Of a DNA stretch of 12,254 bases, positions 11,239 through 11,354 are shown in pieces. Under the pieces are notes generated by a model. That model had not been told where the DNA came from and made no database searches. It saw only the letters and a list, made by a program, of their open reading frames with translations. How positions within the stretch are numbered: the first letter of the stretch is position 1; the number at the start of each line of letters is the position of its first letter. The translations under genes were made by a program, and so were the position numbers. Origin of the DNA: a virus; the UHGV virus genome UHGV-1620146. One strand, 5' to 3'.

Positions 11239-11354
11239 TCCTGGTTAAATTTCATTTTTCGCGGGTATAAAAAAACGATGGGGCGGGCAGTCCGGAAGAC
11301 GTCAGGTCACAGGGATTTGACCCGCCCCTCCCCTCAGACAGTTGAGAATTATGA
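11239..11354. other. Candidate cos / packaging-initiation region between the HNH endonuclease and small terminase genes
   Basis: Non-coding 116-nt gap. It contains an A-tract (TATAAAAAAACG) and a GC-rich dyad, GGGGCGGG (11280..11287) and CCCGCCCC (11321..11328), flanking the palindrome GACGTC (11298..11303). In HK97-like phages cos lies between the HNH and terminase genes. Confidence 0.35.

Follow-up and report, generated by a model that had tools for sequence, protein, structure and literature searches.

The intergenic gap between the HNH endonuclease and small terminase genes of the UHGV virus genome UHGV-1620146 is very probably the cos site of a temperate phage of the SfI/SfV/phiP27 type, which would package its DNA in the manner of HK97 with help from the HNH protein. 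We analyzed a stretch of 12,254 nt from this genome, called the window here, and give all coordinates in its numbering; signed positions are counted from the predicted top-strand cut. An earlier note on the same DNA had placed a candidate cos site in this gap, and the proposal holds up: a 10-mer within it, TGCCCGCCCC, equals the gap left at the virion ends of SfI, and the phiP27, SfI, EPP-1, and HK97 records fall in register with it. The finding is correct but not new, because the site has already been mapped by experiment in the near-identical phage SfI. What is added here are the exact window coordinates of the ends, the demonstration that a GC-rich dyad in the gap is incidental, and a conserved upstream box as a lead.

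For the prophage type in the window, the virion ends would be fixed at 11279 (left) and 11280 (right), with TGCCCGCCCC as the overhang. Such ends help in delimiting prophages, in calling termini from reads, and in spotting satellites that borrow a cos site. HK97-type cos sites have a common architecture of several spaced boxes, and only the TerS site has been mapped experimentally among these boxes. The upstream box bears on how the cut site is chosen and on what the HNH partner adds.

Gene Order and Limits of the Gap

All long ORFs in the window are on the minus strand. Pfam matches give the order HNH endonuclease (HNH), gap, P27-family TerS (Terminase_4), HK97-like TerL (TerL_ATPase and TerL_nuclease), portal, S78 protease (Peptidase_S78), and HK97-fold capsid (Phage_capsid). 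The gap thus sits between HNH and terminase genes within an HK97-like head module, the position found in HK97-type, HNH-dependent cos systems, and the identities that the earlier note had assigned to the two flanking genes are borne out by the PF01844 and PF05119 matches, both on the minus strand (Table 1). The HNH gene agrees in length and position with orf53 of SfV and with the HNH gene of SfI. Its closest solved structure is the HNH endonuclease 5H0M, and its identity to HK97 gp74 is 45% over only 42 aa around the catalytic motif. TerL is 26% identical to HK97 gp2 over 522 aa (BLASTP, E 1e-29) and has a single PDB sequence match, 6Z6D (E 4e-25).

The limits of the gap had been set at 11239-11354. 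The GTG at 11238 merely opens a mechanical ORF, and the gap extends down to 11230: terS starts at the ATG at 11229, which is the start used in SfV and SfI, and has a Shine-Dalgarno sequence, AGGAG, at 11242-11238.

Table 1. Coordinates of the genes and sequence elements at the putative cos site.
Feature	Position	Strand	Remarks
HNH endonuclease gene	11355-11705	minus	116 aa plus stop; PF01844, E 2.4e-16
AT-rich palindromic box TGATCATAATTCTCA	11343-11357	minus	begins with the HNH stop codon
Intergenic gap	11230-11354		125 nt, HNH stop to terS ATG
G-run GGGGAGGGGCGGG	11321-11333	minus	-54 to -42 from the predicted top-strand cut
Heptamer TCAAATC	11314-11320	minus	-41 to -35
Spacer, 20 nt	11294-11313	minus	length conserved, sequence variable; includes GACGTC
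GGAC	11290-11293	minus	directly 5′ of the predicted cohesive end
Predicted cohesive end 5′-TGCCCGCCCC-3′	11289-11280	minus	10 nt, cosN equivalent; placed by the SfI virion ends
T7 tract	11269-11275	minus	+5 to +11; called an A-tract on the plus strand in the earlier note
Candidate small-terminase binding site ATACCCGCGAAAAATGAAATTTAA	11245-11268	minus	+12 to +35; proposed from HK97
Small terminase gene (terS)	10735-11229	minus	164 aa; P27 family, PF05119 Terminase_4
Large terminase gene (TerL)	9005-10738	minus	PF03354 and PF20441; HK97-like

The HNH, TerS, TerL, portal, protease, and capsid genes are all full-length ORFs with full-length family matches. This argues against the idea that the site, although it looks intact, is the unused relic of a cryptic prophage that is never packaged, as does the 98-99% identity of the cos region to the viable phages SfI, SfII, and SfV. 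Only 12 kb are visible, and the prophage could be defective outside the window. Many E. coli prophages of the SfI/SfV type are defective, and the region is present in 1166 of 5426 complete E. coli genomes, about a fifth, which cannot all be inducible; strains with 99.7% identity to the window over this region are among the carriers. On balance we consider a relic unlikely, and an active cos site is the reading that we follow below.

The Cohesive End and Its Register

When the ends of SfI virion DNA were sequenced by run-off, 10 nt were missing relative to the prophage, 5′-TGCCCGCCCC-3′ (PMC3636060). The same 10-mer is found in the gap of the window. The last 8 nt of it are the first arm of the dyad described in the earlier note, so that the cohesive end has two bases more than that arm. 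The phiP27 record carries a 'cos-site' annotation, CGCCCGCCCC, which aligns to the position of the window 10-mer. In the linear records of SfI, Edwardsiella phage EPP-1, and HK97, the final base is the aligned last base of the 10-mer. The SfI record begins with GTCGTTTTTTTATACCCGCG, which is the window sequence from 11279 downward except for the first base. The earlier note had suggested a comparison with the cos sequences of HK97/SfV-like phages, and in this comparison both the 10-mer and its register agree with the mapped ends.

The Shigella phages are the closest relatives at this site. SfI, SfV, SfII, and SfIV have a 10-mer identical to that of the window and the same HNH-cos-terS-terL order; from the G-run to terS they differ from the window at 1-2 bases, and their terS and terL genes are 98-99% identical to those of the window. 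Between the window and SfI, a single base differs from the G-run through the 10-mer, and another differs at +1. A megablast against phage genomes likewise placed the terS side of the gap at 98-99% identity to SfI, SfII, and SfV, and the start or end of several linear phage records falls within the gap. Divergence is greater in the HNH gene and upstream of it, where the window has about 88-91% identity to SfIV and SfI.

The Stx2e phage phiP27 shares with the window the G-run, TCAAATC, the 20 nt spacer length, GGAC, the register of the 10-mer, and a TerS in PF05119. It differs in the first base of the 10-mer (C rather than T), in the sequence of the spacer and of the downstream block (ACACCCGCGAAATTAAAAATTT), and in the position of the terS ATG, at +45 as opposed to +51 in the window. 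HK97, which is more distant, is the most telling comparison: although its HNH resembles that of the window only near the catalytic motif and its TerS has no sequence similarity to the window TerS, it carries GGGGGGGGGATCAAATC in precisely this register, with the T of TCAAATC at -41 from the top-strand cut. A TGAC (xGAC) precedes its CGCC-type 10-mer, CGCCGCCAAA, and an ACCCG plus A/T-tract block follows downstream, offset by 4 nt. The HK97 terS ATG is at +50. HK97 TerL is homologous to that of the window, and the TerS fold may be similar, though the Foldseek match is not significant. The HNH gene of HK97 ends 319 nt before the cut, as against 75 nt in the window.

HK97 has 10 nt 3′ overhangs (PMC9410871, PMC11331095). 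The run-off reads of SfI left a gap and not an overlap, meaning that the 5′ ends are recessed and the overhangs 3′. From the SfI gap and the HK97 precedent we infer that the 10 nt overhang of the window phage protrudes at the 3′ end. The discussion in PMC9410871 gives lambda a 10 nt 5′ overhang and HK97 a 12 nt 3′ overhang, which clashes with the legend of Figure 1 in the same paper (HK97, 10 nt 3′). A review gives the lambda overhang as 12 nt (PMC7617512), and the lambda and HK97 numbers in that discussion appear to have been swapped.

Conservation Across Related Loci

Loci were gathered via the HNH protein from 80 species genomes and 80 viral contigs, and phiP27, phi467, a Klebsiella phage, a Pseudomonas phage, and HK97 were added. 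A composite pattern was used, consisting of a 13 nt G-run (GGGGAGGGGCGGG in the window), the heptamer, a 20 nt spacer, GGAC or GTAC, and a 10-mer of the form YGCCSCCYYN. It was found downstream of the HNH gene in 136 of 166 loci, whereas the reverse strand and 830 shuffles gave no occurrence. Of 61 species loci, 52 have a spacer of 20 nt between the heptamer and NNAC, eight have 19 nt, and one has 18 nt. The HNH stop, in contrast, is separated from the G-run by -16 to 565 nt. The fixed spacer and the varying HNH distance indicate that the box is tied to the cut and not to the HNH gene.

Among 52 representatives with <85% identity, information content per column was 1.40 bits in the G-run, 1.46 in the heptamer, 0.65 in the spacer, 1.70 in NNAC (the most conserved block), 1.23 in the 10-mer, 1.06 from +13 to +30, and about 0.1 further upstream. 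These values are to be read with the anchoring pattern in mind. Since a locus had to show AA within the heptamer, AC, YGCS, and a G-rich stretch, the pattern imposes part of the conservation of the heptamer, the G-run, and bases 1-4 of the 10-mer, and the figures for NNAC, whose 'AC' it sets, are partly circular. In 26 loci whose HNH proteins average 69% identity, mean pairwise identity was 0.76 for the G-run, 0.74 for the heptamer, 0.87 for NNAC, and 0.66 for the 10-mer, with part of this conservation again imposed by the pattern; it was 0.44 for the spacer and 0.43 for HNH third codon positions. The boxes are conserved like codon positions 1 and 2, and the spacer is as free as third positions. 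Some of the conservation of the upstream box may reflect linkage to the HNH gene, since the loci were collected through HNH. This explanation is disfavored because HK97, with a very divergent HNH, keeps the box.

The Dyad, GACGTC, and the A-Tract

The dyad on which the earlier note had based much of its proposal is present in the sequence. Its arms, GGGGCGGG at 11280-11287 and CCCGCCCC at 11321-11328 on the plus strand, form a perfect 8 nt inverted repeat with 33 nt between them. The first arm belongs to the cohesive end, and the second is formed by the final 8 nt of the G-run. The dyad could in principle be a functional unit, either as a hairpin or cruciform recognized by terminase or as an intrinsic terminator after the HNH gene. 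A perfect repeat counts in favor of such a unit, as does the minimum-free-energy fold, in which both arms are paired. The loop of 33 nt counts against it. When the gap was shuffled by mononucleotides, 71 of 1000 sequences (7%) also had a perfect inverted repeat of at least 8 nt, and the fold is not more stable than those of shuffled sequences (z -0.81; 51 of 200 shuffles at least as stable).

In the related loci, the arms do not co-vary. HK97 combines a run of nine G with CGCCGCCAAA, and many loci combine GGGGGAGG with TGCCCGCCTC. In 59 unique pairs of G-box and 10-mer, the longest complement reaches 8 nt only in the xGCCCGCCCC group and is 3-7 nt elsewhere. Mean pairing in these 59 pairs was 5.24, compared with 5.18 when the partners were re-paired at random, and 143 of 500 permutations reached 5.24. 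The terminator form has an 8 bp GC stem, with the second arm followed by 4 nt (AUCG) and then T7 on the phage-sense strand. However, a scan for rho-independent terminators called none on the minus strand, the loop of 33 nt is far from the 3-8 nt expected, and late transcription has to run on into terS and the head genes. A functional dyad of either kind is very unlikely. The two arms are separate elements, the cohesive end and the upstream G-run box, which happen to be complementary in the xGCCCGCCCC subgroup. The elements that the earlier note had pointed to are thus real, while their pairing as a unit is at chance level.

GACGTC, which had been taken as the center of the dyad, does not have that role. 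It stands off-center at 11298-11303, with 10 nt separating it from one arm and 17 nt from the other. It is part of the unconstrained spacer and, among the loci compared, occurs only in the close SfV-like group. A search of 11000-11800 on both strands with Rfam covariance models gave no match at E <=1.

The A-tract, read as a possible bend or IHF-type site, exists as A7 at 11269-11275 on the plus strand, but it does not come with an IHF consensus. No match to WATCAANNNNTTR with at most one mismatch was found within 11230-11354, and the six matches elsewhere in the window equal the chance expectation. We also considered TCAAATC as an IHF site and rejected it: it resembles the TCAA core, but the common variants TAAAATC and TCGAAAG do not have this core.

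The likeness to the lambda cohesive end, also raised before, extends to GC-rich composition, not to length or polarity. Lambda has a 12 nt 5′ overhang, a Nu1/gpA terminase, the IHF site I1, and R-sites, and it works without an HNH partner. The window phage would have a 10 nt end, probably 3′-protruding, and it has a P27-family TerS and an HK97-type TerL. The 10-mer of many relatives contains CGCCGCC, the complement of the GGCGGCG in lambda's GGGCGGCGACCT. In overall layout the two sites are alike: lambda cos (cosQ-cosN-cosB) also combines an upstream element with a GC-rich region that is nicked and, farther downstream, a site for the small terminase next to the gene for this protein. A lambda-type cos was nevertheless rejected for the window, given a 10-mer with a gap that implies 3′ ends, a PF05119 TerS, an HK97-type TerL, and no IHF consensus.

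Record Starts and the Position of the Cut

Deposited phage records are an uneven guide to the termini. Those of SfV (U82619.2), SfII (KC736978.1), ST64B (AY055382.1), and SfIV (KC814930.1) have four different starts in or beside the gap, none of them at the mapped end 11279/11280. The starts of SfV (11296), SfII (~11354), and ST64B (~11244) were rejected as evidence of termini, being conventional or approximate. The SfV and SfIV records are joined at 11296/11297, 17 nt upstream of the mapped end, and those of SfII and ST64B are cut at gene boundaries. The records start at conventional points, and their starts should not be read as termini.

This bears on the possibility that the gap holds a cos site that is cut elsewhere, e.g., at the GACGTC/TCCGGA palindromes at 11296/11297. 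The SfV record starts at 11296 and the SfIV record ends at 11297, and short palindromes are plausible nuclease sites. Yet these palindromes sit in the non-conserved spacer, the SfIV, SfII, and ST64B genomes were linearized by convention, and the SfI paper calls the cos mechanism of SfV only 'postulated' while mapping the SfI ends to TGCCCGCCCC (PMC3636060). The 11280 register is common to three independent records (SfI, EPP-1, and HK97) and to the cos feature of phiP27. A cut at another place in the gap is highly improbable. Headful (pac) packaging, with the gap merely a regulatory or leader region of terS, has nothing specific in its favor, although pac sites are often found in or beside small terminase genes, and its probability is close to nil: the SfI authors concluded that the phage uses cos packaging and contrasted its linear genome, with defined ends and a 10 nt gap, with the pac phages Sf6 and SfX (PMC3636060), TerL of the window groups with that of the cos phage HK97, and an HNH gene beside terS is a hallmark of HNH-dependent cos systems.

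One contig end coincides with the cut proposed here. An Edwardsiella anguillarum contig of 1682 nt (L102) ends on the last base of the 10-mer (...GTAC TGCCCGCCTC), which is the predicted top-strand cut, and it may represent a physical end of phage DNA from the sample sequenced, though the case is anecdotal. Other contig ends near cos are mostly repeat-induced (L096 and L097, at the same base of the terS leader) or at gene boundaries (L032, L037, and L040), and only L102 falls exactly at the 10-mer.

Elements Upstream of the Cut

The G-run is GGGCAGGGGGGGGGA in HK97, and TCAAATC is identical in HK97, phiP27, SfI, and most Enterobacterales loci, with TAAAATC and TCGAAAG as variants. The GGAC next to the 10-mer has its counterparts in TGAC of HK97 and GGAC of phiP27. 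The G-run/TCAAATC box (11333-11314) most likely serves cos as an additional element for recognition or positioning. It may have a role like that of lambda cosQ or serve as a docking site for TerL/HNH. It may even be an undescribed sub-site that HK97-type cos sites require for function, held at one distance from the cut both in SfV/P27-type phages and in HK97; we give this proposition somewhat less than an even chance. The HK97 packaging papers that we searched, in which the TerS site at +15 to +29 is the only one mapped, mention neither the box nor the AT-rich palindrome next to it, and a cf-PICI preprint and two packaging reviews mention no upstream element of HK97 cos. Literature searches with the 10-mer and G-run/heptamer strings returned unrelated papers only, a result that says little about prior description.

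The AT-rich palindromic box at the HNH stop codon resembles the 7-1-7 core of the Fur box, TGATAATNATTATCA. About two thirds of the 52 representatives, HK97 (TGAGAATGAATCGCA) among them, have a similar AT-rich box no more than 16 nt ahead of the G-run. Scored against the 19-mer Fur box, these boxes have a mean best score of 12.1, compared with 9.7 in shuffles. Their consensus is AAATGATAATNATTCTCATC, and the match is perfect in several loci; the palindrome was noted, among others, in L123, L143, L146, L154, and HK97 (L169). The palindrome could be a site for a host factor or a phage protein, and its membership in cos is uncertain.

Downstream of the Cut and the Candidate TerS Site

The TerS site of HK97 has been mapped at +15 to +29, CTAACCCGATTTTTTT, and comprises T16, a C:G pair at 21, and an A-tract (PMC11331095). 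Arg128 of HK97 TerS contacts the G of C:G pair 21, Arg7 enters the minor groove, and the adjacent A-tract is needed (PMC11331095). In the window, the block from +12 to +35 would be the corresponding site. It hardly varies among loci that share this TerS type, which range from E. coli to Providencia, and contains ACCCGCGAAAAAT at +14 to +26, which can be set beside ACCCGATTTTTTT at +18 to +30 in HK97. All three downstream sequence types have a T-run after the cut, at the position of the T7 tract. The analogy between the two TerS sites is weak, because the window TerS has no overall sequence similarity to HK97 gp1 and the Foldseek match is not significant.

The two proteins do have some local features in common. 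The window TerS (10735-11229) and HK97 gp1 (L003:50-535) both start with MA....RS, giving Arg7-Ser8 in each. An acidic-x-Ser-Arg motif stands at the start of a C-terminal helix, as D138..S141-R142 in the window and E126-S127-R128 in HK97. In HK97 TerS, these residues make up a DNA 'arginine clamp' (PMC11331095).

At least three internally conserved types of leader follow the 10-mer (seen in L089-L168), ATACCCGCGAAAAATGAAATTTAACCAGGAG, CACATCGCCGCAGGTTAGAAAACTTTTTTTGGGG, and ACGCGCCCAAAATAAGAAACTTTTTTCCGGAAG, each with its own TerS type. The variants of the 10-mer are not strictly tied to these leader types.

A Model for Cleavage

Arrest at cos depends on TerS in HK97, and cleavage is stimulated by its HNH protein, gp74 (PMC9410871, PMC11331095). 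We suggest a similar course of events for the window phage. Read along the minus strand, the putative site would consist of the AT palindrome, the G-run and TCAAATC (-54 to -35), the 20 nt spacer, GGAC, and the 10-mer, followed by the T7 tract, the ACCCGCG-AAAAAT block, and the start of terS at +51. The G-run/heptamer would be the first part of cos that the incoming motor meets. A ring of P27-family TerS would bind the C/G plus A-tract block shortly after the cut, much as HK97 TerS binds its own site, and would stall and position the HK97-like TerL at the site. TerL and HNH would then make two nicks, one at 11280/11279 on the top strand and one at 11289/11290 on the bottom strand, and this stagger of 10 nt would leave 10 nt 3′ overhangs. 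The virion genome would start at 11279 (ATCGTTTTTTT...) and end with ...GGACTGCCCGCCCC.

GGAC|YGCC is strongly conserved across the loci, whereas the bases at the top-strand nick vary (CCCC|ATCG, CTAA|CCTT, and CAAA|GTTT). We speculate from this difference that one nick is read from the sequence and the other is placed by distance, 10 nt away. The upstream box may position TerL/HNH for the nick at GGAC|YGCC, from which the second nick would be measured.

A Mosaic Junction in the Spacer

The phages vB_EcoS-640R1 (L174) and phi467 (L008) have another 10-mer, CGCCGCCTGA, and another TerS type. They are homologous to the window from the bor region on, across HNH, the G-run, and TCAAATCYCTG, and the homology ends in the spacer at about 11310-11313. 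A mosaic junction therefore lies inside cos, and one HNH/upstream module has been joined to different terminase modules at this site.

The sequence upstream of the HNH gene (11708-12254) differs from that of the SfI-type Shigella phages. Rz/Rz1, present there in those phages, are absent from the window, which instead has the start of a bor-like lipoprotein gene about 0.5 kb upstream, on the plus strand (ATG at 12232, MKKMLFSA...; annotated as Bor in vB_EcoS-640R1). A 40 aa ORF at 11928-12050 matches a 'hypothetical protein' of vB_EcoS-640R1, and a terminator-like hairpin with a 13 bp stem is located at 11822-11851 on the plus strand.
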